A model generated the notes under the pieces. That model worked only from the letters and a program-made list of their open reading frames with translations, was not told where the DNA came from and ran no database searches. This document shows positions 2,694-24,366 of a stretch of DNA of 64,000 nt, piece by piece. The number at the start of each line of letters is the position of its first letter. Position 1 is the stretch's first letter. The translations under genes and the position numbers were made by a program. The stretch lies in assembly GCF_016026235.1 (NCBI RefSeq), contig NZ_CP065613.1; one strand, written 5' to 3'. This DNA comes from Escherichia coli. GTDB lineage: Bacteria; Pseudomonadota; Gammaproteobacteria; Enterobacterales; Enterobacteriaceae.

Positions 2694-2756
2694 ATTCACC
2701 CCACAAAAAGCCCGCCTGAACCAGCGGGCTGTCATAACACTGTGTTACCTGGCTAA

Positions 2757-3356
2757 TCAGAACTTATAACCGACACCCACGATGAAACCGTCAGTGCGCC
2801 AGTCGCCACTGCCGGAACCTTCATAAGCAAGGTCAATGGCCACGGATTCGGTCGGGTTAAACTGCACGCCAGCTCCCCACGCCAGAGACGTGTTGCTGTG
2901 GCGACCGTCATCACTTCCGGTCAGCACGTCGTGCGTTTTCCCCTTGTTGTCAGTTACGCGGAGATAATCCCCGGAGAAAGTCGACACACGGCTGTAAGCC
3001 ATACCCGCCATCGCATACGCGCTGAACCATTCATTCACGCGCACAGACGGCCCCACCATCACGCTGAACCAGCGGTTACGCACGGAATCTTCATGCCAGC
3101 GGGTATCGCTGTAACGGGTAAGCTGGCGATTCTTGTCTCCTGCATAGCTGAATGACGTCACCAGCCCCAGTGTGTCCGTAAACTCATAACGGTATTTCAC
3201 GTTAATCCCGTTAAGATCATCGCTGCCGGGAACGTTCGTCGAGGCATGAAGATACCCCGCGCTCAGCGTGGACTGATGTTCAGATGCCCATGCAGGCGCA
3301 CCGGATACGGCCAGACAAATGGCTGCGGACAAAATGGCGGCATAAAGTTTACGCAT
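2757..3356 (-). CDS. lom: Outer membrane protein Lom (Ail/Lom/PagC family), prophage moron
   Basis: 199 aa with signal peptide; C-terminus [23 protein letters not shown] matches lambda Lom; located between J and stf as in lambda. Confidence 0.9.
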
Positions 3357-3425
3357 AATTACCTCTCGCTTTTCTGCAATAAAAAAGGCACCATTTCTGG
3401 TGCCCTTATATGGGTTATAACAATT

Positions 3426-6838
<3,413 letters not shown>

Positions 6839-6895
6839 TCACGCTCCATAAACGACAAAACCGCCCGGAGGCGGTTTCACATAAAACGTTTTTCA

Positions 6896-7543
6896 TCAGC
6901 GACCAATCACCACAACCTGACCACCATCCCCTTCGTCTGCCGTGCGGATCTCCTGAGAGACCACCCGCGACCCCACGCGCATTTCACCGTACAGAACGGG
7001 CAGAACATTGCCCTGGGCAACCATGTTATCCAGTGAGGAGAAATAGGTGTTCTGTTTGCCGTTATCTGTACTTGCTGCCGTGGGCGTCCTGGCTTTCGGT
7101 GCCAGCATCTGCGCCACTCCGCCCAGGATCATACTGGCCCCTGCCGCATACATGCCCGATACAGCCGCGGCACCCAGCCAGCCCACAGGGTTCCACCATG
7201 CCACCGCAATCAGCGCCACCCCCAGCACCACCTGAAACACACTGCCACTTTTAGCTCCCGCCAGACGCGGCACGATGTGGATCACGGCACCATTTGCCAG
7301 CGGCTCATTAAGACGGGCAGACAATTCGGTTTCACCTGCATCACGCCCGGCAATGCGTACCTGGTACCAGCCGTCGCTCAGTTTCTGACGAAACGCCGGG
7401 ATCTGCATGGCCAGCGCCCGGATGGCTTCGGACCCCGTTTTCACTCGAAGGTCGATGCGGCGGCCAAATCGTTGTAAATCCCCGTAAAGGCAGATGCGTG
7501 CCATGCCCGGTGACGCCAGAGGGAGTGTGTGCGTCGCTGCCAT
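6896..7543 (-). CDS. I: Tail assembly protein I (lambda gpI-like); true start probably an internal Met
   Basis: Position between K and J; C-terminal hydrophobic segment; the annotated start overlaps K by about 100 bp. Confidence 0.75.
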   Translation of the reverse strand: MAATHTLPLASPGMARICLYGDLQRFGRRIDLRVKTGSEAIRALAMQIPAFRQKLSDGWYQVRIAGRDAGETELSARLNEPLANGAVIHIVPRLAGAKSGSVFQVVLGVALIAVAWWNPVGWLGAAAVSGMYAAGASMILGGVAQMLAPKARTPTAASTDNGKQNTYFSSLDNMVAQGNVLPVLYGEMRVGSRVVSQEIRTADEGDGGQVVVIGR

Positions 7544-8193
7544 TTGTCGGTGTACCTCTCTCGTTTGCTCAGTTGTTCAGGAATATGGTGCAGCAGCTCG
7601 CCGTCACCACAGTAAATGGCGGCATGATTCGGCACCGATGAACCAAAACAGCACAGCAGCACATCGCCCGGCTGCGCCGCTGACAACGGCACCTGATACA
7701 GCCCTGTGGCCTCCAGATTATCCAGATAGAGATTCTGACCGTTACGCCACCAGTCATCCTCGCGATGAAAATCCGGCATCTCAATCCCCGCCAGATGGTA
7801 AGCATCCCGGAACAGCGTGTAACAGTCCGTCACCCCGTGCTCAAAGCGCCGCCCGGAAAGATGTGGCACACAGCGGAACTTGTGAATCGCCCCCCGGCAA
7901 ACCAGCCACCACGGCAAATCACTCTGCACCTGCAGCCGCCGGTCGGTCTCACTCAGCCAGGGCAGACCACCGGGGTGGCTGTGGACCAGCGCCACAATCT
8001 CACCCTGCATCTCTGCCCGCAGCCAGTCCTCCGGCGACATCCGGAAATACTCCTCCGGCTCACCGGAGATATTCACGCAGGGAAAATATCTTTCCCCCTC
8101 CGGTGTTCTCACCACGAAGCCGCACGACTCCGCTGGCGCACATCGCCGGGCGTGCGCCAGAATCGCTGATTCTGTCTCTGTCATGGGATTCAC
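7441..8193 (-). CDS. K: Tail assembly protein K (JAB/MPN + NlpC/P60 domains)
   Basis: HSHPGG JAMM-type motif and downstream Cys/His peptidase region; start overlaps the L stop by 4 bp. Confidence 0.8.
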   Translation of the reverse strand: MNPMTETESAILAHARRCAPAESCGFVVRTPEGERYFPCVNISGEPEEYFRMSPEDWLRAEMQGEIVALVHSHPGGLPWLSETDRRLQVQSDLPWWLVCRGAIHKFRCVPHLSGRRFEHGVTDCYTLFRDAYHLAGIEMPDFHREDDWWRNGQNLYLDNLEATGLYQVPLSAAQPGDVLLCCFGSSVPNHAAIYCGDGELLHHIPEQLSKRERYTDKWQRRTHSLWRHRAWHASAFTGIYNDLAAASTFE

Positions 8194-8888
8194 TGCGAAA
8201 GTTTGTTAATGGAAAGGAAGCCGCCAAAGTTGCCGACGTTATTGCGAAACTTACAGCCGCTCAGGCATTTGCTGCATTTATCCTTCGTGATATCGGAGGT
8301 CGGCTGGTCATATTCATCCGCGACCGCCGGACCGTGATAACCGCACTCATCACCGCGATAGGTCCAGGTGCAGGTATTAGCCAGCATGATGCGCCCCGGA
8401 AAAACAGCGCCGTCCGTTTCCGTCGGCGTGGACAGTACAAAAGAGGCACTCACCGCGCTCAGTTCGCTGCACTGCTCGATGCGCCAGCGGCTGATCACCT
8501 CCTGCTCCGGATCGGCGTCACTGTTTCCGTTGACGAAGTTCACCGCATCCAGAAAACGGGCGTAAACCTTACGCCGGACCACCGTTCCTCCGACCAGACT
8601 CTGCAGGTCTTCCGCCATCCCGGTGACCATGCCGTGCAGGTTAGAAACCGTCAGTGTCGGACGGGCAGCACTGCCTTTGCCGTTCAGTTCAAATCCCGTC
8701 CCCTGAATGGGATACGCCTGATACTGTCGCCTCTGCCAGGTGACCGGCTCACCTTTATCGTTCTGCTCATTACAGAAAAAATAACGCTCACCACCGACCT
8801 CTGTCAGATCGATTTCCCAGAGCTCCACCCGGACTGACTGCTCCGCACGGGTGCATTCATTCAGTGTTTCCTGCCGGATATCCTGCAT
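8190..8888 (-). CDS. L: Minor tail protein L
   Basis: 232 aa, same length and position as lambda gpL; Cys-rich C-terminus. Confidence 0.85.
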   Translation of the reverse strand: MQDIRQETLNECTRAEQSVRVELWEIDLTEVGGERYFFCNEQNDKGEPVTWQRRQYQAYPIQGTGFELNGKGSAARPTLTVSNLHGMVTGMAEDLQSLVGGTVVRRKVYARFLDAVNFVNGNSDADPEQEVISRWRIEQCSELSAVSASFVLSTPTETDGAVFPGRIMLANTCTWTYRGDECGYHGPAVADEYDQPTSDITKDKCSKCLSGCKFRNNVGNFGGFLSINKLSQ

Positions 8889-9217
8889 CAGTTCACCACC
8901 TGTTCAAAATCGGCCGTTACAGTCACCCATAACGCCCCCACGCTTGCCGACCATTTACGACAAACCACCCTGATCGGTTTCCAGTCATAAGGTGGCGTCC
9001 ACTGAAATGCGCGGACGCCACCGTGCCGTTCCAGAAAGGCTTTTAAAGATGGGTGTTCACATTTACGAACACGTATCGTCACGCTGTAAATCGACAACTG
9101 GTTATTCAGTCCCGCCGCACGACGCTGTTCATAACCATCGCCCAGCTTCACTGTCACCACTTTCGGCTCTGATACCACATTCATATCCGGGCGCACTTTC
9201 CAGTGAAACGTCTCCAT
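8888..9217 (-). CDS. M: Minor tail protein M
   Basis: 109 aa, same length and position as lambda gpM. Confidence 0.85.
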   Translation of the reverse strand: METFHWKVRPDMNVVSEPKVVTVKLGDGYEQRRAAGLNNQLSIYSVTIRVRKCEHPSLKAFLERHGGVRAFQWTPPYDWKPIRVVCRKWSASVGALWVTVTADFEQVVN

Positions 9218-12200
9218 TACCGATATGCTCCACTTAACCGACCACCATCACGGGCCTGCTGTTGCATAAAGTCCGCTGCCGCTTTTTTCCCAAGGTCATA
9301 AACCACCTTCAGGGCAGCCGGACCTATCTGCCCGTTCGTGCCATCGTTATTGATCTCGATGTTGTACTGCGGGGCAAACATCGCCATACCTGAACCACCA
9401 ATATCCGCCACAACCCCCAGCTTACCGTCAGCACCACGACGCAGTGGCAGAATGGCTTCAGGTCCAGCTTCCCCCATCACACCCGCGCCTTTTGCAAAAG
9501 CAAAAAACGTCGGACGGTTAACCACCGTGCCACTGTAACGACTCAAATCAGCAGACTGATAAATCCCCCCATTGGCATTCAGGGAAAGGCTGCTGAGATC
9601 AAATCCCAGTACACTGCCAATCCCTTTTATCGATTTCATCATGGTTGCCTGCGCCAGGATTTTCGCCATATCTGACAGCACCGAAGAGGTGAAGGATTTG
9701 AAGTTGAGTTTGCCGGTAGTGACAAAAGTTGCCAGGCCATTTCCCATGTTGCTGAAGGCTGATGAGAACACCTGTTCTGCTGTTCCTGCCGTATTGTCTG
9801 CATCCACGGTAAAATCCTGAAATGCACGCAGGACTCCGTTTTTCCAGTTACCCTGCACAACTTCAAGCTGTTGCCAGTAACGGCGATTCTCATTCAGTTG
9901 TCGGTTCAGGCTCTCCGTCAGCGCCTGCTCGGCCTTTCTGTAGTCATCCGTGTTATATGTCCCTTTCTGCTCACTATCCCGCCTCAACTGCTCCAGCTGT
10001 TGCTGGTATTTCTGGCGAAGACTCAGTTGTACCTGATATCGCTGCCGCTGCTGATCACCCATACCCACCGTGGCGATATCCAGGTCATGTTGCTGACGCT
10101 GAGCGCGCTCTTCTTCAGCCAGTTGACTGGTCAGCTGAATTGTTTTTTTCTTCAGATCGTTGAGTGCCGTTTGTTTCTGAAGCTCCTGCTGTTTTACATC
10201 CAGCAGCGTCAGTGCCTGAATCAGCTCATTCTTACGGGCCAGCACACTCTTTTCATCTGCCGTCAGCTTTTTCCCGTCCAGGTCGCTGATGCGCTGCTGC
10301 AGGGCCAGAAGCTGTTTATGCGCTTCAGTCATCCTTTCAGTGGCAATGCCTGCTGACTGTCTTGCAGCAGCAATCTGTCCTTCCACCTGTGCCTGTTGCT
10401 GACTGTACTGCAGCAATAACCGGGTGGCCTCATCATTACGGGTTTCGCGTGTTTTTTTCTTACCGGATGCCAGGGCTTTCTCGTAACGTTCATTTTCACG
10501 TTGTATCGCCGCATCCCTGACAGCCTGGTCGGCGTACTGCATGGCATTAATACGCGCAATTTCACGCTGATGTCGTGCTGCTTCCGTTTCATTCATCCGG
10601 TTCAGTGCAGCATTTTCAGCATTACGTCGTTTCTGTTGCTCCTGATAATTCCGCTCTGCCTGCTCTTTTGCATCCTGCAAATCCTTCTGGCGTTTTTTCT
10701 CCTGAAGATCGTTAAGACGCTGCTGATCGTATTCAACCTGAGAAGATGATGCCGTCCAGGGGAGTCTTTTCGCCCGCGACACTTTCTCCTGTAAAGCGGT
10801 AATCTGTTCATCCAGCGAGTCTTCACGACCAATATTCATGGCCGCATCCCAGAAACGACTCCACAAATCAGACAGATACTTCAGCGTACTGCCAAGCGCA
10901 TTGAGGTTATTATCAATATCCGCAGTACGCCGACCGGTTTCCTCTGCCAGTGCAGACATGGCTATCCGTGCAGCATCACTGGACCGTCCCTGATCCCCAA
11001 GGACACGTATCTGCTCAAGCTGAGTGGCAGTAAGAAAATGCAGCTCATTGTCCAGAGCCTTCGCGGCATTTACAGGATCATCCTTCAGCCGCTTAAACTG
11101 ATTTATGGTATCGCTGACCGACTGGCCAACCGATCGCTCCATCTGTGCGGCAGCTCTCGCCACCATACCGATATCGTTTCCACGAAATGCACCACTCCCC
11201 ACCACCTGCGCCAACGCACCGGCTGCAGCATGTTGCGTGATACCATTCCCGGAAATAGCACGACTGAGCGTCCACAGCTGCCCGGCAGTGACTCCGGCAT
11301 AATGCCCCGTCAGCGACAACTGGCGGTTAAATTCTTCCCCCTCCTTCTGACCGTCATACCAGGCTTTACCCAGACCATAGACGGCCGCGGCAATACCGCC
11401 AATAACCCCGCCAAGCATCATGCCTTTCGGTGACATCAGTGCGCCTGTCCATCCGGCACGGTTAGCCAGCGTTATCCCGGATCCCCTCAGCGCCCCTAAA
11501 TTGCCGCGGGCCAGTTCACCTATCAGAACGCCTATCTCCTGGCGGGCTGCTGCACTTTTCAGACCCAGCGAATGCGTGGCTTTTCCTGCCTGCTCCATTT
11601 TGCGGATATACACTTCTGCAGCACTGCTTACCCCCAGCTGGGCTGCCCTGGCGCGAAGCAACTCAGAAGATGAAAGATTCTGGCGGGTTGCCTGCTCTTT
11701 AAGCTGACGGATAAACGCCACTTTCTGTCGGGTAGCCTCTTCCTCAGCCTGTGTAAGAACACGGGTTTTCGCAGTAACCTCAGAAATCAGCGCCAGATAA
11801 TCCTGCTGACCAATCCCGCCACTGTTTCTGGCCTGTCGGATCTGCTGCTGAATACGCTGTAATTCCTGCAGCCCCGCACTGGCCTGTTTCACACTGTCAA
11901 TCTGACGATAAAACGCAGCAGCCGCTTTATCCTGAGCCTCCGCCAGAGCCATGGCCTGCGCCTGTTCCTCGCGCATTTTCTGGCTCAGCGCCTCCATGCG
12001 CTGGCGGGTTTTCTCCACCTCGCGGGCCATGCGTTCATGAGCCTGTGCGTTCTTCTCCACCGTCTGCGCATGGACGGATGCGGCTGTTGCAGCCGAAGAA
12101 GCCGCCTGCGTTGTCTGCCGGGCGGCCTGAGTCTGACGCTCCATAAAACGCTGCATACGGGCAGAAGACCGTTCTGCATCGCTGGCTGCACCATTCAGAA

Positions 12201-12312
12201 GGTTTTTGATACGGGGAATTTCATTTTTAAACTCTGCCGCATCAATCCCCAAATCAATGACCAGGTTGGCTATCTGGTCCATAACGCACACCTCCGGAAA
12301 TACCTTCCCCAA
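9217..12312 (-). CDS. H: Tail tape measure protein H (start possibly at 12282)
   Basis: About 1030 aa, coiled-coil-rich, Gly-rich C-terminal part ending NNDGTNGQIGPAALKVVYDLGKKAA... similar to lambda gpH. Confidence 0.9.
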   Translation of the reverse strand: MGKVFPEVCVMDQIANLVIDLGIDAAEFKNEIPRIKNLLNGAASDAERSSARMQRFMERQTQAARQTTQAASSAATAASVHAQTVEKNAQAHERMAREVEKTRQRMEALSQKMREEQAQAMALAEAQDKAAAAFYRQIDSVKQASAGLQELQRIQQQIRQARNSGGIGQQDYLALISEVTAKTRVLTQAEEEATRQKVAFIRQLKEQATRQNLSSSELLRARAAQLGVSSAAEVYIRKMEQAGKATHSLGLKSAAARQEIGVLIGELARGNLGALRGSGITLANRAGWTGALMSPKGMMLGGVIGGIAAAVYGLGKAWYDGQKEGEEFNRQLSLTGHYAGVTAGQLWTLSRAISGNGITQHAAAGALAQVVGSGAFRGNDIGMVARAAAQMERSVGQSVSDTINQFKRLKDDPVNAAKALDNELHFLTATQLEQIRVLGDQGRSSDAARIAMSALAEETGRRTADIDNNLNALGSTLKYLSDLWSRFWDAAMNIGREDSLDEQITALQEKVSRAKRLPWTASSSQVEYDQQRLNDLQEKKRQKDLQDAKEQAERNYQEQQKRRNAENAALNRMNETEAARHQREIARINAMQYADQAVRDAAIQRENERYEKALASGKKKTRETRNDEATRLLLQYSQQQAQVEGQIAAARQSAGIATERMTEAHKQLLALQQRISDLDGKKLTADEKSVLARKNELIQALTLLDVKQQELQKQTALNDLKKKTIQLTSQLAEEERAQRQQHDLDIATVGMGDQQRQRYQVQLSLRQKYQQQLEQLRRDSEQKGTYNTDDYRKAEQALTESLNRQLNENRRYWQQLEVVQGNWKNGVLRAFQDFTVDADNTAGTAEQVFSSAFSNMGNGLATFVTTGKLNFKSFTSSVLSDMAKILAQATMMKSIKGIGSVLGFDLSSLSLNANGGIYQSADLSRYSGTVVNRPTFFAFAKGAGVMGEAGPEAILPLRRGADGKLGVVADIGGSGMAMFAPQYNIEINNDGTNGQIGPAALKVVYDLGKKAAADFMQQQARDGGRLSGAYR

Positions 12313-12978
12313 GATGCATCAGTTCTTCGTCCGTTCGCTCCGGTATCCCGTTCTCTTCCGGTAAAAGGCTGAAATCAGCCACCGCAGCATCACTGCTGCC
12401 GGACACCATTCTCACGATCAATGCCTTCAGCGAGGCAAACTGCGCATCCATCCACACATCACTGAAGCTCTGCATCCGGAAATAATCGCCCCACTCACCA
12501 AGCTCAGTGGCCGACATTTCCGACAGCATCCGCCGCCAGTCTGCCCGCCTGAACTCCCGGGCAAGCCGCATGACAAACTGCATTTCCCGCGTCAGGACTT
12601 TTCCGGCGTCAGCACCTCATGCTCCAAATCCCCGGCATTCTCAATGGCTCCCATACCGCTCAGCGACAGAACCATCTCCGCCCCCGCTCCCAGGGCATCA
12701 TACGACCATGTTGTAATAACGGATGCGCAAAGCGTCTCAACATCCTGAGACTGTTCCGCATTCCACAGTGAGCGGGAAACCAGCCAGGCATTGATATCCA
12801 TCCCCATCCGTAGAAAAGCAATCTGTCGTTCAGCCTCCGGCAGTTCTCCCTCTTCGGCATCAAACTTTGCCGTTCGCTGCTGAACAAACGCCAGATATTC
12901 AATTCTCTGCAGCCCGGACAGCTCACTGAGCACCACGGACTGCTTTTCATAATTAAACGTGCCCTGTTTCAGAAACAT
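12254..12978 (-). CDS. Tail assembly chaperone G-T, expected to be made by -1 frameshifting near the G stop
   Basis: The -1 frame is open across the G stop (…AGKVLTREMQFVMRLAREF…) and continues as ORF 12254..12583. Confidence 0.6.
12592..12978 (-). CDS. G: Tail assembly chaperone G
   Basis: Starts MFLKQGTFNYEK like lambda gpG (MFLK...); lies immediately upstream of H. Confidence 0.8.
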   Translation of the reverse strand: MFLKQGTFNYEKQSVVLSELSGLQRIEYLAFVQQRTAKFDAEEGELPEAERQIAFLRMGMDINAWLVSRSLWNAEQSQDVETLCASVITTWSYDALGAGAEMVLSLSGMGAIENAGDLEHEVLTPEKS

Positions 12979-13037
12979 CATGTTCTCCGGATGCAAAAAG
13001 CCCCGGATAACCGGGGCAAATGATGAGTATCGTCCTG

Positions 13038-13669
13038 TTAACCTGCGGCGCTGACAGCCACCGTAGCCACTGCCACAAAATCGCCGTCAGAAGTCATGCC
13101 CACAATGCTGACACTGCCCTGCTTCACGCCTTTCACCGTGGCAGTCTGTGGATCTGTCGAATGCACACTGATCGCTTTGTCACTGGCTCCGTCAGGTTTT
13201 ACTGTAAAGGTCAGCGTGGTGGTTGCTCCCGCTTTGACACTGGCAGATGCCGGTGCCATCGTCAGCCCGGTAACGCCCACGATTTCAGTGCCTTCCTCTG
13301 CCAGATACGGAAAACATCAACAGTACCGTTGGGATATTTGATACGAAAAGCGCAGACTTCACCGGAGTCGAACAACTGAACCAGTTTTTTCTGCCCGCTG
13401 TCCCCCGGACGCCAGGCCAGCGTCGCCGAAGTATCACCGACTGATTTCTGCCCCTGGGTTGTCGTTTTCCAGTCTGCATCTTCATCATCGAGATAAGTGT
13501 CATCTTCTGCATCAGCGGTCATTTCGCCAGGTTGCAGATCCTTCACCATCGCAAGACGCAGCCAGTCAGTGTCCGATAAAGGGTTCGCAAACGCATCGCC
13601 CTTGCCGGTATACATCCAGAACGTCGTTCCCGCACCTTTCGTTTTTGCCAGTGGATTTGGTGTGGTCAT
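13038..13669 (-). CDS. V: Major tail protein V, split into two overlapping frames (13262..13669 and 13038..13280)
   Basis: N-terminal part [20 protein letters not shown]...NGTVDVFR resembles lambda gpV; the Ig-like C-terminal domain ([24 protein letters not shown]...) is in another frame. Confidence 0.8.
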
Positions 13670-13679
13670 TACCACCTCC

Positions 13680-14093
13680 TTAATTCGTGTACGTGATCTG
13701 GTACGTGATTTCCGCCATCGCCCAGGTGGCCATCTCATTATCACGTTGATAGTTAAAACCGAGTGGGATCAGGGTGTCGATGAGTCCGGAAAGTGCTGGT
13801 ACATCATTCAGGGCCGGGAAAATGGTGCTCTCCATCCACATATCCAGCTCTGAATCCGGTGCCTGTGCCCGGATGAAGACAGCAATATGCAGAACAGCCT
13901 GCCAGTCATCTTCATCCGTCATTTTTCCGGTGTACTGAGCATCACTCAGCCACACCGCCACGGCAGGCAGTTCCTGCGCATCAACAAATGCCGGAAGCCC
14001 GTCAAAAAACGTGGCGCTGTCTCCACACTGTTCCCGAAGGCGTGCCAGTACGACCTGGCGGATTTGTGTATGTCGGTTCATCGGGTCAGCCAT
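13680..14093 (-). CDS. U: Tail tube terminator protein U
   Basis: ATFFDG...AVAV...PDSELD.WMES motifs similar to lambda gpU. Confidence 0.8.
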
Positions 14094-14656
14094 AACCTCA
14101 GTTGTTGTTTCAGTGCATACCCCAGCTGTTTCGGCATTTCCGCAGCAATGATGCGGTCGCGGGCATCTTCAAATGTCTGTGTCAGCGGTCCGGACAGCGG
14201 GATTTTCACCACATCAATGGGGTAACGATTTTTGCCATCAATACGCCGCATCACATGCCAGCGACCATTCGCCAGTTGCTGAATAAACGCATCCCGGAAA
14301 AGATATTTACCCACCTTCAGCACACTGCCACGGTACTGCAGTTTTCCACCACGCCGGGCCAGTCTGACCCGGGCTGTCCCCAGCTTAATGGCAGGCAGAT
14401 TGCCCCGGTTAACGCGGATCCTGGCCGTCATTTTTCCTGACGGACTGGCTTTAAACACCCGGACACGCTGACGTACCAGTTTCAGGGGGATCCCTTTCAC
14501 CTGGTTATCTCCCGCAACGGTATTCCCGGCAACCTGCCGGGTGGCAACCGAGACCGCTTTCTGTGCCACACGGTTTATCGCCCATGCGCTGGCCTGTGGC
14601 ACCATACGGGTATCAAGGCTGTTCAGATTGCGGATGGCATTCTCAAGCCCCTTCAT
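14078..14656 (-). CDS. Z: Minor tail / tail completion protein Z
   Basis: 192 aa; RWHVMRRIDGKNRYPIDVVKIPL and C-terminal KQLGYALKQQLR resemble lambda gpZ. Confidence 0.8.
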   Translation of the reverse strand: MKGLENAIRNLNSLDTRMVPQASAWAINRVAQKAVSVATRQVAGNTVAGDNQVKGIPLKLVRQRVRVFKASPSGKMTARIRVNRGNLPAIKLGTARVRLARRGGKLQYRGSVLKVGKYLFRDAFIQQLANGRWHVMRRIDGKNRYPIDVVKIPLSGPLTQTFEDARDRIIAAEMPKQLGYALKQQLRLWLTR

Positions 14657-14667
14657 CCCACACCTCT

Positions 14668-14943
14668 TTACTCAATAAAGATCATTGGCTTACCGTTAAA
14701 GCGTTCATGCCGTGTGACCGTCCATTGTTGTCCGTCATAAACAACGCGATCACCGCGCCGTGGGCGGTATCCCGAAGAAAACACCACCAGAGAGACCGCA
14801 GGTCCGGACAGAGCATTCAGCTCTGCCAGTGTTTCTCCCGGGATCACAGTCATATCGACATCATTAATCGAGGCTGTCTTTCCCATCTTTCTGACCGTGA
14901 TAGCATCCATACGCGCTGCCAGCCGGGAAAAGGGATCAGACAT
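14668..14943 (-). CDS. Head-tail joining protein (FII-like)
   Basis: 91 aa, positioned between the head module and Z as lambda FII is; call is by position and size. Confidence 0.55.
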   Translation of the reverse strand: MSDPFSRLAARMDAITVRKMGKTASINDVDMTVIPGETLAELNALSGPAVSLVVFSSGYRPRRGDRVVYDGQQWTVTRHERFNGKPMIFIE

Positions 14944-15259
14944 TGAGTTTTACCGGCACTTCTTCTGCACTGGTTCCGGCATCTGCCCAGACAACCCCGA
15001 CCAGCGGATCAGAGCCGCTGTTAGTCAGCTGAATTTTTCCGGACTTCAGATAAACCTTCTTACCCGTTTTCATGTCATCCGTTTTCAGCTTAGGCAGCAT
15101 AAACACACCTTCGGTCATGCCGTCGCCTGTTTCACCCTGTGGAATATCGGTCAGCGCCACCGCAAAAACATCGCCCACCTGCACCAGATCTCCGCTGCTG
15201 ATGGCTGCACTGGCAACAATCGCCACCGTTTTTCCTTCTTCTACAAAATTCTTTGCCAT
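14936..15259 (-). CDS. Small phage head-associated protein (DUF2190-like), probable start MAKNFVEEGK
   Basis: About 107 aa immediately downstream of the capsid gene; tentative family assignment. Confidence 0.45.
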   Translation of the reverse strand: MAKNFVEEGKTVAIVASAAISSGDLVQVGDVFAVALTDIPQGETGDGMTEGVFMLPKLKTDDMKTGKKVYLKSGKIQLTNSGSDPLVGVVWADAGTSAEEVPVKLNV

Positions 15260-15345
15260 AACTGTCTCCGCACAGCCCCGTTCAGGGGCTGATTTCAGGT
15301 ACAAAAAAAGCCCTTACGGGCCATCAGAGATGTTGTCTGCGACGT

Positions 15346-17057
15346 TTACGCCGTACATTTCACCAGACCGCGGTGATCAACTGGCGCGACACCGGCGTCA
15401 ATACGCACTTTCGTTGTCACGCCATCCACACTGAAGCCCTCCATCTGATCAATATATGGCGTATCCACACCGTTGAGATAAGCCACTTCAATCGTATCGG
15501 AGCCTTTTGACGCAGCCAAGTAGAAGGTGGTCTGGCTGTTATCATCAAGACGAGGCTCTGCAATAACGGTCGCAAAATCTTTCACCGGGTTAATAATACC
15601 GGCGTTAATGTCAGCCCCCTTGACACTTGAGGAGCGAATGACCTGGTTAGCAACAGACTCCATCGCCGTCGGTACCAGTACGAACGCAGGACGAATATTC
15701 AGATGACGCTCCCCCTCTTTCTGAACGCGCATCAACTGGCGGGCTTTATCCAGCGATGCCACGTCCATTGCAGCGCTCTCCAGTACGTTTGCATGTTTCG
15801 CTTTATCGAACAGACTTACATTATCTGTGGAGATTTTCGGGTTAGACGTCAGAATGGCATAAACCAGATCGGCAATAGTGGATTTCGCCGCACGGCCCAG
15901 TTTCATCGGGACATCGGTCAGCATATTCAGATCATCATTGATAATGGCCTGACGGGTGATACTGAACAGCTCGCCATAGGTCGCCAGTGCAATAGTGGCC
16001 TGTTTATCTCCGGTGGTGACGTATTTATATTCCGCCCCTTCACGCACCTGACGCAGAGCACTGAAGCCCCCCATACCCACACGATGGGCAATTTTAAAAT
16101 CAGACAACTGACCTTTCCGCGTCCACTGTTCATAGGTTTCAGGGGCATCTTCCCAGCCCTGCAGAATGGCTTTGTTCGCAACATCCAGCAGAATATTACC
16201 GAAGTCAGACGTACTGTGTGTGAACGCCGCACCGACCATCTGCATCGGGTTATAACCGGAAACCCCAATACCCCGTTCAGTCAGTGACATACGGGCATAT
16301 TCACGCAGGGTCATCCCGTTGTAGACATTATCACGTTCGGTTTTTTCAAATCCGGCACGCGCCATCAGCGCCTGGCGGATCCCGTCCCCCACAAAATTAC
16401 CGTTACCGGCATAAATATGAGCCGGGGTATTTTTATTGGATGGCGTGGACTCGCGCCCCATCTCGTTCAACAGCTTTTCACGGGCCTGCTCCAGCGAACA
16501 TTCAGGATCGGCAAGACACTGAGCCTGCAGCGTCTGATAACGCCCGCCAAACATGGCAAACAGATCATTAATACCGTTTACACGCGCTTTTTGCTCTGCC
16601 AGTACCTGCGCACGGATGCTGTTTTCATCCACCACGGGTGCTGCTGCCTGCACTGGCGTCCGGGAGGCTTCAGATTCATTATCCTGTACGCGTGGAGCAC
16701 TGTTGCGTGGCGGAGTAATCATGTTTCGAATGGATTCCGGCATCTTTTTAAATTCCTCTGTACGTTTTGACTGAATACATGCCATTGCCTTAACGGCTGG
16801 CGTTACCTGATCAGCAAATCCATGTGCCAGACATTCGGCACCGGACATCCAGGTCTCATCCGCCAGCATGGCAGCAATTTCATCGGTGGTTTTCCCGGTT
16901 TTCTGTGCATAAGCGGGTAACAGAACCGCCTCAACTTTATCGAGCAGGTCGGCATAGGTGCGCATGTCCTCCGCATCACCGCCCGTAAAGCCAAATGGTT
17001 TATGAATCATCATGAAGGTGTTTTCCGGCATAATGACCGGGTTTCCTACCATCGCAA
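15346..17057 (-). pseudogene. Prohead protease / major capsid protein fusion (HK97-fold), 5' end cut by IS600-like element
   Basis: N-terminal part looks like the C-terminal half of a ClpP-like prohead protease, followed by a capsid-like domain; the frame runs directly into the IS end at 17058. Confidence 0.75.
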
Positions 17058-17100
17058 TGAGGTGTACTGGCAATAGCGGACACTACCATTTGTTCTTTTT

Positions 17101-17919
17101 TTAAGCAGCCATCTGATGATATTTTTCCCTGAAGGCTGCCGGGGAGATATTCCCCAGACGAGAGTGACGACGCTGACGATTGTAGAAAATCTCAATGTAT
17201 TCCCGTATTACTGAGATGGCTTCATCCCGGTTATTAAAACGATAGTGGCTCAGGCTCTCATTTTTCAGCGTTCCCCAGAAGCTTTCCATCGGAGCGTTGT
17301 CGTAACAGTTACCTTTACGCGACATTGATGTTTTCAGACCAAACTGCTCCTGTATGACCCGGTAATCGTATGCGCAGTACTGTGAACCTCGATCAGAGTG
17401 GTGGATTAGCCCGGCAGGTGGGCGCTGGCTCCTGAGCGCCATAAACAGGGCTTTACCTGTCAGCTCTTTTGTCATGCGCTCTCCCATGGCGTAGCCGACA
17501 ATTTCGCACGTATAAACATCTTTGATGCCAGCGAGGTACAACCATCCCTCCTGTGTGGCAACATACGTCAGGTCCGCCACCCAGACCTGATTTGGTGCTG
17601 TAGGAGCGAACGTCTGGTTCAGCAGATTTGGCGCAACTGGCAGATTGTGGTTCGGGTTCGTAGTCGCTCTGAACTTGCGTTTCTGCTTACAGCGTAGCCT
17701 TAGCTCCTTACGAAGACGTGCCAGTCGGTCACGACCAACGATGATGCCATTCTCTGCCAGCTCCGTCTGGAGCCGCCGGGTTCCATATGTTTCGCGAGTG
17801 CGGATATGTGCCACCTTAATCTCCAGTTTTAGCCGCTCATCACTTTGTTTTCTGTCTGAGGGTTCATGCTGTACCCAGTTGTAATAACCGCTCCTGGATA
17901 CACCAAATACCTGACACAT
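17101..17919 (-). CDS. IS3-family transposase OrfB (DDE integrase-like catalytic domain)
   Basis: 272 aa with HSDRGSQY and later E; the -1 frame joins orfA to orfB through an A7 run (about 17995-18005). Confidence 0.9.
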   Translation of the reverse strand: MCQVFGVSRSGYYNWVQHEPSDRKQSDERLKLEIKVAHIRTRETYGTRRLQTELAENGIIVGRDRLARLRKELRLRCKQKRKFRATTNPNHNLPVAPNLLNQTFAPTAPNQVWVADLTYVATQEGWLYLAGIKDVYTCEIVGYAMGERMTKELTGKALFMALRSQRPPAGLIHHSDRGSQYCAYDYRVIQEQFGLKTSMSRKGNCYDNAPMESFWGTLKNESLSHYRFNNRDEAISVIREYIEIFYNRQRRHSRLGNISPAAFREKYHQMAA

Positions 17920-17954
17920 CGCTTCAATGGGAAATTGTTGTCGCCATTGTTCGA

Positions 17955-18257
17955 TTAACGCGTATTTTTCAGCGACTCCTGTGCAAAATACGCTGTTGCT
18001 TTTTTTAATATATCTCGCTCAAGGCGAGCTTCATTTAACGCCTTACGCAGTTGCAGAATTTCAGATTCCAGTTCAGCCACCGTGCGGGAGCCAGGAGTAC
18101 CGAGCCCTTTTCTGGCGGCGGTAACCCATTGTCCTAAAGTGCCTTCAGGAAGGGATAATCGGGAAGCGCCTTCACTGATCGAAAGTTGATTTTCAAGAAC
18201 CGTTCTGACAGCTTCGGCTTTGAACTCTTTAGAGTAACGTTGGGTTTTTCTGCTCAT
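17955..18257 (-). CDS. IS3-family transposase OrfA (helix-turn-helix)
   Basis: 100 aa, MSRKTQRYSKEFKAEAVRTV..., typical IS3-family OrfA. Confidence 0.9.
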   Translation of the reverse strand: MSRKTQRYSKEFKAEAVRTVLENQLSISEGASRLSLPEGTLGQWVTAARKGLGTPGSRTVAELESEILQLRKALNEARLERDILKKATAYFAQESLKNTR

Positions 18258-18321
18258 TATTAGCTCCTTCTGATGCCATTCTATTTCAGGAAGGAGTGTC
18301 CGTTAAACTCAGGCTACCTCA

Positions 18322-18405
18322 GTTTTCCCTGACTCTTACGCCTTTATAAACAAACCAGATACGTAATTTCCCTCCATGGCTTTCCACGCCTGTCGGATAT
18401 TTCAT
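18322..18405 (-). pseudogene. Phage integrase N-terminal remnant (about 27 codons), truncated by IS600-like element
   Basis: Minus-strand translation MKYPTGVESHGGKLRIWFVYKGVRVREN is the characteristic N-terminus of lambdoid tyrosine integrases, directly downstream of xis. Confidence 0.6.
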
Positions 18406-18439
18406 TTCAATTTCTCTCATTAGTTAGTGTGGCTTTTAG

Positions 18440-18691
18440 TCAAGTAAGATGACGTCTTGGTCTTGCTGATGCCTGGCGCTCAATCCAGCGATCAATTTCT
18501 TCCAGGTTGTAAAAGCATGGACTGTTATCCCATGGCATACCGTCATGAGCGACATGCTTATATTCCCTTCCTTCCATAAACGATTTTTCCCGGGCCTTTT
18601 TTAACGTACCTTTTTTTATTCCTTTCAGCGCAATTAACTGCTCTTCGGATACCCATTTGCCGGGAGAGACAATCATGATTACTTCGCTCAT
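18440..18691 (-). CDS. Putative excisionase-like protein
   Basis: 83 aa, immediately upstream of the int remnant on the same strand; assignment mainly by position. Confidence 0.5.
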   Translation of the reverse strand: MSEVIMIVSPGKWVSEEQLIALKGIKKGTLKKAREKSFMEGREYKHVAHDGMPWDNSPCFYNLEEIDRWIERQASARPRRHLT

Positions 18692-18775
18692 CGATTTCTT
18701 TATCTCTTACATCAGACGAGCGCCGGTTGCAGAATACCAGTCACAACCGGCGACAGTTGAACATTAAGAATCAGC

Positions 18776-18904
18776 CTGACTCGGGATCAGTTTTTGCCAG
18801 ATAACTGAAACGTATTTTGCCTGGTAACGGGCGTCATCAAGTGCATTATGGCGCTCACCTTCGAATGGAATAGCCGTTCTGGCATCGAAGTCTATGGCTT
18901 TCCC
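18776..18904 (-). pseudogene. C-terminal fragment of a DnaQ-like (DEDDh) 3'-5' exonuclease, 5' part removed by IS10-like insertion
   Basis: Translation ...FEGERHNALDDARYQAKYVSVIWQKL contains the H-x-A-L-D-D-A exo III motif; the frame runs into the IS end at 18905. Confidence 0.45.
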
Positions 18905-20198
18905 CTGAGGAATCCCCAGAAAACAAGACAGGCATAGTGAGATGTGATCTAATTGATTGTGCTAACAATTTCAAGGAGATCACCACTATGCCTGCACGTT
19001 CATTATGCCAAAATTTCCTTAACAACATACTGGCCCCTTTGCATCTTTACCGTCAAAAATCACTGATTGACGCAACTAATGCTGTAATAAATGGCGCTTC
19101 CCTCACACTTACCAGTATCGGGCGTCATTTAACCGGTACGGCATCAGTTAAAAACAAAATAAAGCGGGTGGATCGACTGTTGGGGAATCGACATTTGCAA
19201 AATGAGGTTTCCACCATTTTTCAGCGAATTACCCAAAAGATTACGCGGGGAATGTCTCGTGTTGTGATACTCATTGACTGGAGTGCTTATCATGCCTCTC
19301 GTTTTCAGCTTTTGCGGGCAAGCCTGGCATGTGACGGGCGTTCTTTACCGTTGATGAGTTGTGTCGTTCCATCATCACAGACAGCGAATGCAGATGTACA
19401 TGAGCGTTTTCTGGAATCGCTTGCTGAGTGCTTTTCCCCCGGGACTGATGTCATTGTTATTACAGATGCCGGTTTTCAGGGGCGATGGTTCCAACAGCTC
19501 CGCTCCCGTGGCTGGACCTATATTTGCCGGGTACTGGGCAATCATTATTACAATGTTGGTAATGGCTGGGAAAAGGTGTCGGACTCAGGCACAAAAGCAT
19601 CAACGACAGCAATTTATTTAGGTGAAGGCCTGCTGGGTCGAGATAAAAATGCACAACATGAAGGGCATTTTTATCTTTATAAAAGTAAGCCTAAAGGTCG
19701 TAGATTTAAACGCTCGAAGGAAAGAGCAACCAGACCATCGGTGACGGCTAAAGCTCGTACTGCCGGGAAATCACCATGGTTTATTTTCACAAACAGTACT
19801 GAGTTCTCGCCAAAACAGGTAATGAAATTATACAGCCGTAGAATGCAAATTGAGCAAAATTTCAGGGATGAAAAAAATCCTCGCTGGGGATTTGGACTAC
19901 GGTTTGGTGCCAGTCATTCATCCGGGCGGGTCACGGTATTGAGTCTGATCGCAACATTAGCCAGTATCATTATGTGGTTAAGCGGTTTCAGCCTGGAAAA
20001 CAAAGGGATACATCATAAATATCAGGCAAATACAGTGAAGCACAGGCGAGTCATCTCGTTATTAAAACTGGCGGAGAATGTGATTCGACATTCTCCACTC
20101 ATACTAAACACACTGTCACTTGACGCAGGGCTGAAAGTTCTACAGCAACGGTATACCAATATGATAATGGTTTACTAAATTTTCTGGGGATCCCTCAG
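18905..20198 (+). mobile_element. IS4-family insertion sequence, IS10-like, copy 1 (1294 bp)
   Basis: Terminal inverted repeats CTGAGGAATCCCCAGAAAA (left) and CTGAGGGATCCCCAGAAAA (right, reverse complement), resembling IS10 ends; single transposase ORF; no 9-bp direct repeat in the flanks. Confidence 0.85.
18988..20178 (+). CDS. IS4-family (IS10-like) DDE transposase
   Basis: ATG at 18988 preceded by AAGGAG; motifs KRVDRLLGNRHL, ILIDWS, VITDAGF and YSRRMQIEQNFRD align with the IS10 transposase DDE residues. Confidence 0.85.
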   Translation: MPARSLCQNFLNNILAPLHLYRQKSLIDATNAVINGASLTLTSIGRHLTGTASVKNKIKRVDRLLGNRHLQNEVSTIFQRITQKITRGMSRVVILIDWSAYHASRFQLLRASLACDGRSLPLMSCVVPSSQTANADVHERFLESLAECFSPGTDVIVITDAGFQGRWFQQLRSRGWTYICRVLGNHYYNVGNGWEKVSDSGTKASTTAIYLGEGLLGRDKNAQHEGHFYLYKSKPKGRRFKRSKERATRPSVTAKARTAGKSPWFIFTNSTEFSPKQVMKLYSRRMQIEQNFRDEKNPRWGFGLRFGASHSSGRVTVLSLIATLASIIMWLSGFSLENKGIHHKYQANTVKHRRVISLLKLAENVIRHSPLILNTLSLDAGLKVLQQRYTNMIMVY

Positions 20199-20824
20199 CA
20201 GTCAGCCCCGCTCTCTTTCGCTTTTTCCAGTCGTTCATCAATGCGATCGGCAACAATCACATTTTTAACGTTATAGACGCCTTTTAATACCTGAACGATC
20301 GTCAGGCCGATTGGACCGGCACCGTAAACCAGAACGGTATCATTTTCAGTCGGTTGACCATGGCCGGTTACGTTAGCCGCAATGGTAAAAGGTTCGATCA
20401 TCACCGCATATTGATCGGCCACTGCTTCAGGAATTTTCCACGCATTTTTTGCCGGAACCACGGCATATTCACTGAAACCACCGTCAGCGTGCACACCTAA
20501 TACAGCCAGTGTCGTACAAACGTTCGGTTTACCTATAGAGCACGGATAGCAATGCCCACAGCTGACCACCGGATCGACAGCAACACGTTCACCGACTCTG
20601 GCGCTTTCCACACCTTCACCCACCGCATCAATGACGCCAAAGAATTCATGTCCAATGACGCGCGGATATTTCGCAAAAGGATTATGCCCACGATAAATAT
20701 GGCTATCTGAACCACAAATTCCGGCAAGTTTCACTTTTACTCGTACTTCACCCGCTGACGGGGTGGGTATTTCACGTTCGACAATCGCCAGTTGATTCGG
20801 TTTTTCAATTAATATGCTTTTCAT
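20199..20824 (-). pseudogene. rspB: Starvation-sensing zinc-type dehydrogenase RspB, 3'-truncated by IS10-like element
   Basis: N-terminus MKSILIEKPNQLAIVEREIPTPSAGEVRVKV... matches RspB; reading frame ends in a TGA supplied by the IS terminus after about 208 of roughly 339 residues. Confidence 0.85.
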
Positions 20825-20835
20825 TATCTTACTCC

Positions 20836-22050
20836 TTACCAGTTCCACAGCGTGCCATCTTCCAGACGTGCGACTGGTAGATAAGCAGGTTCATAGGGAT
20901 ATTTCGCCGCCAGCTTTTCATCGAATTCGATGCCAAGACCCGGTTTGTCTCCCGGATGCATATAGCCGTTATCGAAAGTCCAGTTGTGCGGGAAGACTTC
21001 GAGCATTTGTTCGGAATAACCCATGTATTCCTGGACACCGAAATTGGGGACCCACAGATCAAAGTGCAGCGCTGCAGCCATGCAGACTGGTGACAAATCG
21101 GAAGGACCGTGTGAGCCAGTACGTACCTGATACAGCGAAGCAAAATCGGCAATCCGGCGCATACCGGTAATTCCGCCTGCATGGGTCAGCGTGGTGCGGA
21201 TATAATCGATGAGTTGCTCTTCAATCAGTTGTTTGCAGTCCCAGATGCTGTTGAAGACTTCACCCACTGCGATGGGTGTGACGGTATGTTGGCGAATGAG
21301 ACGGAAGCATTCCTGGTTTTCCGCAGGCGTCGGGTCTTCCATCCAGAACATGCGATAATCTTCAATGCTTTTACCAAAGCGCGCCGCTTCAATAGGCGTT
21401 AAGCGATGGTGCATGTCATGCAGCAAATGTTCATTAAAACCAAACTTGTTACGTACCGCGTCAAACAATTTCGGCATGAAATCGAGGTATTTCTCCGTCG
21501 ACCACAGCTGCTCTTCCGGCCACTGTCCTTTGGTTGCGGGTTCATAAGCCAGACCTTTACCTTTCGACATGCCGTAGGTGGTTTTCATACCAGGGATTCC
21601 GCACTGCACGCGGATGGCTTTGAATCCCAGCTCCTGATGACGGGCATAATCATCCAGAGCTTCATCAATACTGTGACCGGTGGTATGGCAATAAACCATC
21701 ACCCCTTCACGAGACGCGCCGCCGAGTAACTGGTAAAGCGGCATGTTGGCAGCTTTGGCTTTAATATCCCACAGCGCCATATCAACCGCTGAAATGGCCG
21801 ACATCGTAACCGGACCGCGACGCCAGTAAGCACCTTTATAGAAAAACTGCCAGATATCTTCGATACGGTGCGCATCGCGACCAATAAGCTGCGGACAAAG
21901 GTGATCCTGCAAATAAGAGGCCACGGAAAGCTCACGTCCATTGAGGGTGGCATCCCCAAGGCCCGTAATACCGTCCTCAGTGGTGATTTTTAATGTGACG
22001 AAATTACGCCCCGGACAGGTAACAAAAACTTCAGCCTTTACGATCTTCAT
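20836..22050 (-). CDS. rspA: Starvation-sensing protein RspA (mannonate dehydratase / enolase superfamily)
   Basis: [40 protein letters not shown]...; 404 aa from the internal Met. Confidence 0.9.
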
Positions 22051-22255
22051 GTTCGATTCCTTGCATCGCTTGTCGTGATGCATGAAATCTACGCAACTGA
22101 ACTACTACCATACAAGTATGAAGATCGAAAAAAGCCGGAGTGATCACAAAAAAAGGCGTATATTTGCGCTGTGAATGGTTGACAAAAGATGAAATAGAAT
22201 ACCTTTTGTCAGCTGACGCTTCCTCGTATCTTATTGATAAAATGGATTTATGTTC

Positions 22256-22582
22256 CTACGTGCGCCCCCAGCCCGCAACAATGATCAACATGCCGCAAAG
22301 CGCAATCAACGCACCCGTCCAGTCATAAAGTGTCAGTTTCACGCCATCCACAACGCGCAGCCACATCAACGCCGTGCAGACATAAACGCCACCATAAGCC
22401 GCGTAAACACGCCCACTCGCCGCAGGATGCAACGTTAACAACCAGACAAACAGCGCCAGTGAAATCCCCGCCGGAAGCAACAGCCAGATACTGGCGTTTC
22501 GTTTTAACCACAACCAGGGCAGAAAGCATCCAATAATTTCACACAGCGCAGTAGCAAAAAATAGTAACGTTGTTTTAATCAT
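22256..22582 (-). CDS. ynfA: UPF0060 inner membrane protein YnfA
   Basis: 108 aa, four predicted transmembrane helices; conserved synteny. Confidence 0.85.
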
Positions 22583-22716
22583 CTTTGTCACTTATTGACA
22601 TCATGTATAGTTATAGGGCGACATAATATCATCAATATAAACACCCTCCTGGTACGTTTTGCGTCCGCAGTGGATGGTGTAGAATCACCTTTAATCATTC
22701 ACACAGGGAATGAATT

Positions 22717-23058
22717 ATGAAAATCACTCTCAGCAAACGAATCGGCCTGCTCGCTTTTCTGCTGCCTTGCGCACTGGCATTGAGCACAACTGTTCATGCC
22801 GAAACTAACAAACTGGTGATTGAGTCTGGCGACAGTGCACAAAGCCGCCAGCACGCCGCTATGGAAAAAGAGCAATGGAATGACACGCGCAATCTGCGCC
22901 AGAAAGTGAATAAACGCACTGAAAAAGAGTGGGATAAAGCCGACGCCGCTTTTGATAACCGCGATAAATGTGAGCAAAGCGCCAACATCAATGCCTACTG
23001 GGAGCCAAATACTTTGCGCTGCCTGGACCGTCGAACTGGCCGCGTTATTACCCCCTAA
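22717..23058 (+). CDS. ynfB: UPF0482 secreted protein YnfB
   Basis: 113 aa with signal peptide. Confidence 0.85.
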
Positions 23059-23092
23059 CCTGTTATTGATTTAAGGAATGTAAGGACACGTT

Positions 23093-23653
23093 ATGCCAAG
23101 CGCCCACAGTGTTAAGCTACGCCCGCTGGAGCGTGAAGATTTACGCTATGTACATCAACTCGACAATAACGCCAGTGTGATGCGTTACTGGTTTGAGGAA
23201 CCCTACGAAGCCTTTGTTGAACTCTCTGATCTGTATGATAAGCATATTCACGATCAGAGCGAACGACGCTTTGTGGTGGAATGTGACGGCGAAAAAGCCG
23301 GTCTGGTGGAGTTGGTGGAAATTAACCATGTACATCGCCGCGCAGAATTTCAGATAATTATCTCCCCGGAGTATCAGGGGAAAGGTCTGGCAACCCGTGC
23401 CGCCAAATTAGCAATGGACTATGGCTTCACCGTTCTCAATCTCTATAAGCTGTATCTGATCGTTGATAAAGAGAATGAAAAAGCGATTCACATTTACCGC
23501 AAGCTTGGCTTTACGGTTGAAGGTGAATTGATGCATGAGTTCTTTATTAATGGTCAATATCGTAATGCCATTCGCATGTGTATATTCCAGCATCAGTATC
23601 TGGCAGAGCACAAAACACCGGGTCAGACTCTCCTGAAGCCGACCGCACAATAG
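23093..23653 (+). CDS. speG: Spermidine N1-acetyltransferase (GNAT)
   Basis: 186 aa; GNAT fold motifs; matches SpeG. Confidence 0.9.
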
Positions 23654-23655
23654 CA

Positions 23656-24366
23656 TTAATAATAATCGATCGTATTTTTGATGGTGTAAACCCGTTCGAC
23701 GGCGGGTTTTACTCCTTCATCAACAATGATCAGCTGACAGTCCACCGGATTGGCGTGACTGTCATATTCACAGCTCTGTTTTACATTACCAACTCGTTGA
23801 TTATTCAGTAAAGTAACCGCTGTGTAATCTAATTTTTTGATCGGGTCCGTTGATGGCGTGGCGCTGACAGATAATGTTTTGTCGTTACTTTTCGTGGTTT
23901 TACCCAGTGGATAACCCTGATCATCATAGCGATATTCCATCTGCATTTGTTTGCTGCTGGCTTTAATCACGAAGCCATTATCATCGGTTTCCCAACTCAC
24001 CCCGGCAGAAGGTAATTCTGCTAGCTGGCATTTTCCCTGTAAACGTACTCTCTTCTCCAGCGTCTCGGCATCACGGTAATAATTGGCGTCCAGTACCAGA
24101 GCGACCACGGTATTATTTTCCAGATCCAGTAATTCGAGTGAATCAAAACAGCCTTCTTCCGACAAAGTCCCCGAAACACGTTTCGTCACTTCACCTTGCT
24201 CATCCATTAATGTCTGAGTGAAATCTTTTACCGGACCACGCAGCGGATCAAAATCGAATTCATTAGAGAAACTGGCCATCTCAGGAGTAAATGAAAGTGT
24301 TACCTCTGTGCGGTCACATCCTGTGAGTAATATCGCGAGTAAGCATGGCAGTAATTTGTATTTCAC
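23656..24366 (-). CDS. ynfC: Lipoprotein YnfC (UPF0257); probable GTG start
   Basis: Lipobox LLTGC; 236 aa from the GTG. Confidence 0.8.
   Translation of the reverse strand: MKYKLLPCLLAILLTGCDRTEVTLSFTPEMASFSNEFDFDPLRGPVKDFTQTLMDEQGEVTKRVSGTLSEEGCFDSLELLDLENNTVVALVLDANYYRDAETLEKRVRLQGKCQLAELPSAGVSWETDDNGFVIKASSKQMQMEYRYDDQGYPLGKTTKSNDKTLSVSATPSTDPIKKLDYTAVTLLNNQRVGNVKQSCEYDSHANPVDCQLIIVDEGVKPAVERVYTIKNTIDYY

Follow-up and report, generated by a model that had tools for sequence, protein, structure and literature searches.

What inactivated rspB, a sugar-acid dehydrogenase gene, at this locus: the insertion sequence (IS) at which the gene now breaks off, or an earlier lesion? We address this question in the window, by which we mean the whole stretch of 64,000 nucleotides of Escherichia coli DNA under analysis, through comparison with K-12 and with a set of related loci (numbered with an L) obtained by exact-protein look-ups of the 209 amino acid rspB product and of model-predicted products. 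Very probably, the rspB found here is a dead remnant left by ordinary IS activity in an IS-rich lineage, through a history of five steps. The features concerned are the following (window coordinates, strand).

15346-17057, minus: prohead protease/major capsid fusion gene of the same prophage as the fragments below, truncated at its 5' end (561 of 675 amino acids called)
17058-18321, minus: IS600 (IS3 family), 1264 bp, flanked by CAA and GTT
18322-18405, minus: first 28 codons of a prophage integrase gene, cut by IS600 (coordinates by way of L002 and L008)
18440-18691, minus: prophage excisionase gene (DUF1233; PF06806, 1.6e-31), inverted together with the exonuclease fragment
18764-18904, minus: last 141 nt of a Qin-family prophage exonuclease gene (exo, ydfE-like), inverted relative to its natural orientation
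18895-18904, no strand: exo-side copy, TGGCTTTCCC, of a different 10-bp target duplication (related loci L024 and L027)
18905-20198, plus: ISEc60 (IS4 family, IS10-like), 1294 bp, with IRL on the left and IRR abutting the rspB remnant
18988-20178, plus: ISEc60 transposase gene, 396 amino acids, convergent with rspA and the rspB remnant (DDE_Tnp_1, PF01609, 1.8e-20, 74 bits)
20195-20824, minus: rspB remnant (rspB'), 208 native codons, a hybrid codon 209 (Cys) and a TGA inside the IS terminus, from the K-12 comparison and Pfam
20199-20208, no strand: rspB-side copy, CAGTCAGCCC, of a 10-bp target duplication whose partner is absent from the window
20836-22050, minus: rspA, intact, first gene of the rspAB operon
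63101-64000, minus: another ISEc60 copy, incomplete because the window stops within it, opposite in orientation to the first and 302 bp upstream of uidA

The rspB remnant and its neighbors

The DNA derived from rspB covers exactly 20199-20824, and homology in more than 5,400 E. coli genomes starts at window position 20199. The original prediction, made from this sequence alone, was that RspB stops after about 208 of roughly 339 residues and that the IS terminus supplies the stop codon. Both statements are confirmed. The open reading frame that starts with the ATG at 20824 (minus strand) encodes 209 amino acids; in the alignment with K-12 RspB (339 amino acids), residues 1-208 are identical and are followed by Cys and the stop. 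Codon 209 combines TG from an rspB Trp codon with C, the first base of the IS, which changes Trp to Cys. The stop TGA (20197-20195), read directly from the sequence, is made of bases 2-4 of the IS terminus CTGAGG.

It had also been proposed that much of the C-terminal half is lost, and the domain check bears this out. The ADH_N domain (PF08240; residues 24-133, 113.5 bits in Pfam) is complete, so that the GroES-like N-terminal catalytic domain is present, whereas only positions 1-36 of the 129 in the ADH_zinc_N (Rossmann) profile are covered, with 26.6 bits against a cut-off of 31.8. As a zinc-dependent MDR, the product is short of full length, with 209 instead of 339 amino acids and an incomplete Rossmann NAD(P)-binding domain. 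Judged from its domains, a protein that retains the catalytic domain and is without nearly all of the NAD-binding domain is predicted to be inactive. Full-length homologues do not end at this point: at least 80% of rspB is held in one place in 4,881 of 5,426 complete E. coli genomes, and the structure in PDB 4ILK covers residues 1-339, the full protein. Full length is therefore the rule, and the end at codon 209 is not natural. The junction between rspB' and the IS is common to at least five independent assemblies (L007-L010 and L012), one of which, L007 (GCA_900449985.1), is 100% identical to the window across 20,630 bp and evidently represents its source genome or a twin, and the exact-protein look-up found the 209 amino acid product in 31 collection blocks. 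A search of the window for the rspB 3' end, ydfJ, ydfI and rspR found none of them.

The gene upstream of rspB was expected to be intact, and it is: RspA is identical to its K-12 counterpart at 404 of 404 residues and has both MR_MLE_N and MR_MLE_C. Being upstream in the operon and untouched, rspA could still be transcribed from its own promoter. One may speculate that read-through from the convergent transposase gene of ISEc60 is antisense to rspAB.

The ISEc60 at the break is identical, at 1294 of 1294 bp, to an element of FDAARGOS_943 whose annotation in RefSeq is "IS4-like element ISEc60 family," and its terminal inverted repeats (CTGAGGAATCCCCAGAAAA and CTGAGGGATCCCCAGAAAA) match at 18 of 19 bases. 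A search of the literature for ISEc60 gave passing mentions only. The second copy in the window sits in normal uidA-uidR intergenic DNA, as is also the case in L006 (7900-9210). In FDAARGOS_943, too, uidA is preceded by an ISEc60 of this orientation at a similar distance. IS1 and the ycj/pgmB cluster come after that copy, which implies that a large rearrangement has occurred.

Intermediate structures and the proposed history

A direct target duplication was looked for around the window ISEc60 and is absent, the flanks being TGGCTTTCCC on the left and CAGTCAGCCC on the right. Such unlike flanks mean that this copy is not a simple insertion. To its left, the 583-bp int'-xis-exo' remnant (18322-18904) is inverted relative to rspBA when compared with the natural arrangement in TA8571 and L008, where the int-xis-exo module is convergent with rspB. 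The relatives have the layout of a Qin-family prophage, in which int-xis-exo adjoins rspB convergently and the late genes lie on the far side. The window keeps only the inverted remnant and a lambdoid late region (1-17057, minus strand), whose tail-fiber end matches K-12 stfQ in the K-12 orientation. Between the two, IS600 joins integrase codon 28 to the capsid gene, and around this copy there is no 3-bp duplication (CAA against GTT), whereas GTT/GTT is present in L024 and L027. Within the late region, the major tail-tube gene of the prophage (around 13262-13744; L007 17156-17787) is called as two pieces of 135 and 80 amino acids. The split, compared with a single 247 amino acid protein in relatives, suggests a further frameshift or nonsense lesion in a decaying prophage.

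Related assemblies contain structures that can be arranged in stages. At stage 0 (L048, L049 and L053), rspB has no IS and lies beside intact int-xis. These loci are 99.96% identical to the window (L048 has one mismatch in 2,550 bp), and their rspB has a 1-bp deletion in codon 229, where loss of one C turns AAGCCGAC into AAGCGAC and gives a product of 230 amino acids. The same deletion occurs in every member of the clade that keeps the 3' end (FDAARGOS_943, L008, L024, L027 and L051) and is absent from K-12 and TA8571; it lies 20 codons downstream of the IS site (L048 2608-2616, L008 near 11990, L001 near 4650). Loss of this C in the clade ancestor, with the resulting frameshift, would be the first step of the history we propose. 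The rspB of this clade would then have been a pseudogene before the IS arrived, and the truncation that is visible today would not be the inactivating lesion. As the window is without the rspB 3' end, it is on the basis of these relatives that its own ancestor is taken to have carried the frameshift.

Stage 1 is seen in L008 (GCA_901482675.2), a simple ISEc60 insertion in the window orientation with a direct 10-bp duplication, GGGCTGACTG; the natural order of the rspB 3' end, ynfP, int, xis and exo is kept, and all of them are intact. It corresponds to a second step, in which ISEc60, by IS10-like cut-and-paste, would have entered codons 206-209 of rspB and duplicated this target. Stage 2 is represented by L027 (GCA_031665325.1), which has a simple insertion of ISEc60 in exo, with direct GGGAAAGCCA and inverted relative to the rspB copy, as well as an IS600 that is a simple insertion in int with direct GTT; the L027 contig stops within the rspB duplication. 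Correspondingly, in the third step another ISEc60, inverted, would have entered the adjacent exonuclease gene 141 nt from its 3' end, and IS600 would have entered the integrase gene at codon 28.

At stage 3, in L024 (GCA_014155105.1) and L025 (GCA_001907535.1), a 3.6-kb segment made up of exo3'-xis-int::IS600-ynfP-rspB3' lies in flipped orientation between two copies of ISEc60. In L024 the junctions read GGGAAAGCCA-IS-GGGCTGACTG at one copy and TGGCTTTCCC-IS-CAGTCAGCCC at the other, so each duplication is split and reverse-complemented across the copies. Only the right-hand copy of this arrangement is kept in the window, and L024 15426-22400 is 100% identical to window 17058-24032. Homologous recombination between the inverted ISEc60 pair, the fourth step, would have flipped the segment and brought exo3' against the IS that abuts rspB5'. 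A 799 amino acid read-through protein of exo and the IS (across the 10-bp duplication, at the IRR end), predicted before the look-up, was found exactly in both L024 and L025.

The window itself is stage 4, in which IS600 has the capsid gene, not int3', on its left. The capsid-IS600 junction is also present in GCA_001907535.1, which retains the exo5'::IS junction; the capsid gene had therefore acquired its IS600 copy before the last event took place. Prompted by a match over 1-18321, O121 STEC was considered as sharing this junction and was rejected: its IS600 piece lies in a tail-fiber assembly gene and its capsid gene is contiguous. In the fifth step, specific to the window genome, recombination between the direct IS600 copies in int and in the capsid gene would have removed approximately 25 kb (distances summed over three genomes, L039, K-12 and L024), comprising the capsid 5' end, portal, terminase, lysis and early genes, exo5', one ISEc60, rspB3', ynfP and int3'. 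The 3' third of rspB is thus gone from the locus, probably taken by this IS600-bounded loss. That the event was a deletion, and not an inversion or translocation, would fit three marker products: the 799 amino acid exo chimera, a 419 amino acid int' product and a 42 amino acid ynfP-like open reading frame are on record in the stage 1-3 assemblies and absent from the indexed genes of GCA_900449985.1, with the qualification that gene calling varies between assemblies. Calling is indeed uneven, as the ynfP-like frame is in the DNA of L027 and uncalled there, and a separately called 82 amino acid frame of the RspB C-terminus occurs in 552 collection blocks and is uncalled in L024. A 192 amino acid tail protein of the prophage is common (3,606 collection blocks).

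Real assemblies thus show the structures of steps 1-4 and the junctions of step 5, and from these we infer in what order the events occurred, how the copies recombined and that step 5 was a deletion. Could the stage 3 structure have arisen more directly? A single intramolecular transposition (replicative type) of the rspB ISEc60 into exo would duplicate the IS and invert the segment in one step, with no homologous recombination. The L024 structure is as expected for such an event, with two inverted copies and with duplications that are split and reverse-complemented, and the 100% identity of the two ISEc60 copies fits it too. However, IS10-family elements move by non-replicative cut-and-paste (known for IS10/Tn10 and extended to ISEc60 by analogy), and the exo::ISEc60 of L027 is simple and in natural orientation, as two successive insertions predict, although re-inversion could mimic it. 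Inversions between inverted repeats are reversible, so that L027 could be a re-inverted L024; the two-step and one-step routes are alike in structure. We consider the one-step route unlikely and retain two insertions followed by homologous recombination.

The ISEc60 copy at 63101 was also considered as the inversion partner and rejected. Its flank, GGAATTCTC, matches neither of the reverse-complemented duplications expected; the block 20199-63100 runs colinear with FDAARGOS_943 as far as 28100, and with K-12 as far as 26908; and uidA, at the far end of the block, is positioned as in FDAARGOS_943.

Repeated insertion at one rspB site and the question of selection

Here we compare the window with a sister allele, the rspB::ISEc60 pseudogene of FDAARGOS_943 (NZ_CP065615.1; I6H00_RS06870/06875/06880). 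The two are alike in the element DNA (100% identical), the nucleotide of insertion, the 10-bp duplication, the codon-229 frameshift, the 209 amino acid product, the flanks (99.94% identical) and a second ISEc60 on the uidA side. They differ in that the FDAARGOS_943 element has the opposite orientation (IRL joined to rspB5') and is a simple insertion with rspB3'-ydfJ-ydfI adjacent; ydfJ is intact, its site is free of prophage, and the locus has undergone neither inversion nor deletion. An IS keeps its orientation relative to its flank in homologous recombination, so the FDAARGOS_943 insertion is a separate transposition. As CTGAGG stands at the start of both IS termini, the sequence across the junction reads ...GAC TGC TGA whichever way the element lies, and the 209 amino acid product is the same.

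An IRL-type ISEc60 junction at the same rspB nucleotide is also present in L011 and L013, whose flanks are 98.9% and 98.7% identical to the window, respectively, and 99.1% identical to each other. The flank of L013 (Logan ERR2223983) is 99.985% identical to K-12, yet it has ISEc60 at this nucleotide. In L011 (SRR4293164), one base of the 10-bp target is changed from T to A (GGGCAGACTG), and the insertion is still present.

The site at codons 206-209 of rspB is a hotspot of ISEc60 insertion, used in both orientations and in three sequence backgrounds. Apparently, three or four independent hits have fallen on one 10-bp target. A 10-bp duplication accompanies all three simple ISEc60 insertions examined (L001 4716-4725/6020-6029; L008 10617-10626/11921-11930; L027 6910-6919/8214-8223). 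Of the four IRR-proximal flanks seen, three have GGG at the start (GGGCTGACTG, GGGAAAGCCA and GGGAATTCTC), the fourth, that of FDAARGOS_943, being CAGTCAGCCC, the rspB target in the other orientation. This pattern may reflect an asymmetric target preference of ISEc60.

The gene is also lost in other ways. No megablast match to rspB was obtained in 453 of the 5,426 complete E. coli genomes, and less than 80% of it is held in 92 more. The flanking region is matched in 5,410 genomes. Genomes that have no rspB match although their flanks match indicate that loss of the whole gene is common. Other disruptions involve IS1 (H71, L023), ISKpn26 (CX08, CX12) and ISEc68 (TA8571), and the 82 amino acid C-terminal frame adjoins N-terminal fragments of many lengths, some of them in assemblies that are visibly error-ridden. 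The rspB region is prone to rearrangement and the gene is dispensable, which lends partial support, on other grounds, to the earlier suggestion of a recurrent rearrangement site. The recurrence is real; its source is the ISEc60 hotspot together with general decay of rspB, and not the end of a prophage as had been suggested.

It is tempting to ask whether the IS insertion itself was the inactivating event and was selected, the loss of RspB with RspA kept being adaptive and repeatedly favored. Hits of ISEc60 at the same nucleotide, in both orientations and three backgrounds, would agree with this, as would the disruptions by three other IS types and the number of genomes with no match or a shortened one. 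However, the codon-229 frameshift occurs with no IS in nearly identical genomes, which means that the IS hit a gene that was already dead; two hits of opposite orientation in one clade cannot both have been selected for inactivation; and identical nucleotide positions fit target preference, whereas selection would scatter hits along the gene. We regard selection of the insertion as improbable. With two hits in a clade that was already frameshifted, target preference, not selection, is the economical explanation.

A wider version of the proposal is that loss of RspB with retention of RspA is positively selected across E. coli, codons 206-209 being both a hotspot and a target of convergent inactivation. 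Its basis is the frameshift, four ISEc60 hits at the same site, the IS1, ISKpn26 and ISEc68 disruptions, and the approximately 10% of complete genomes that have no rspB of intact length. The prior frameshift argues against selection for the IS event in the window clade, and the species-wide version likewise seems improbable to us. The preferred reading remains IS activity on a gene that was already inactive.

Comparison with known systems

The original prediction placed the break at the junction where K-12 has intQ and the end of the Qin prophage. This does not hold. The Qin end of MG1655 is at 1,652,745, within ynfP (a 5' portion of ydfJ separated from the rest of that gene), and lies 151 bp beyond the stop of rspB (1,652,896-1,653,915, intact) and approximately 545 bp from the position of the window break. 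The same neighborhood and a related prophage is the correct description. The lineage carries a Qin-family prophage at the ydfJ/ynfP att site, and the exo-xis-int module of this prophage supplied the second IS target. The likeness to K-12 Qin lies in the att region, which is the same, in a related int end (L024 13635-15385 is 98.7% identical to K-12 rspB3'-ynfP-intQ), and in a related stfQ tail-fiber gene in the same orientation as in the window. The differences are that the K-12 prophage ends past an unbroken rspB and that its decay has proceeded through IS2 in ydfE/intQ, not ISEc60 or IS600.

These comparisons also bear on a reading in which the truncation is a by-product of integration or aberrant excision of a Qin-type prophage at the rspB end. 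The int-xis-exo module does adjoin rspB, in this lineage as in K-12. Against this, the att site is in ydfJ/ynfP, past the rspB stop; beside an intact int, rspB is full length in K-12 and, but for the codon-229 deletion, uninterrupted in L048; in TA8571, ISEc68 interrupts the int-adjacent rspB close to the 3' end of the gene; and the break has an IS terminus and an IS-type 10-bp duplication, a junction sequence that refutes the reading. We consider it very improbable. An assembly artefact is hardly credible, for although IS copies are classic points of mis-assembly and short-read contigs break here (L009-L013), the same structure occurs in a 4.56-Mb contig and a 420-kb contig of different assemblies, and the intermediates agree with one another in structure, even in their duplications.

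The second comparison is with IS10/Tn10, for which insertion at hotspots, and inversions or deletions by recombination between copies, were reportedly described by Kleckner and co-workers. ISEc60 resembles IS10 in its IS4-family DDE transposase, in CTGAG... termini similar to those of IS10, in a strong tendency to enter one target again, in either orientation, and in rearrangement between inverted copies. It differs in the duplication, which is 10 bp here and 9 bp for IS10, and in its length of 1294 bp as against 1329 bp. The rspB site is a ready hotspot for defining the target preference and the 10-bp duplication of ISEc60.

An L-gulonate route has been proposed that involves YdfJ, RspB, YdfI and RspA. 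The function of rspAB is debated, as either stationary-phase regulation or glucuronate-related metabolism (PMC13034041), and natural strains that are rspB-null and rspA-intact are possible test material. Annotation should class the 209 amino acid frame among pseudogene fragments and allow for a gene having been inactivated by a lesion other than the one that truncates it. The rspB'-ISEc60 junction, the inverted int'-xis-exo' fragment and the capsid-IS600 junction can serve as ordered lineage markers for the clade. These markers, together with the ISEc60 hotspot and its 10-bp duplication, are of modest added value. The case has little weight for general biology. It illustrates cleanly how IS expansion erodes a metabolic operon and the adjacent prophage, with every intermediate extant in public assemblies.

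The third comparison is with IS-rich E. coli and Shigella lineages, in which ISs drive pseudogene formation and prophage decay. IS600 and dozens of ISEc60 copies suggest an IS-expanded lineage here, possibly an enteroinvasive-like one. As in those lineages, a few IS types are present in many copies (37 matching places in FDAARGOS_943), genes are truncated, and IS copies with no duplications bound inversions and deletions. A difference is that speG and uidA are intact in the window. The truncation of rspB is textbook IS-driven decay of a known kind, and its sister allele is already annotated as a pseudogene in RefSeq.
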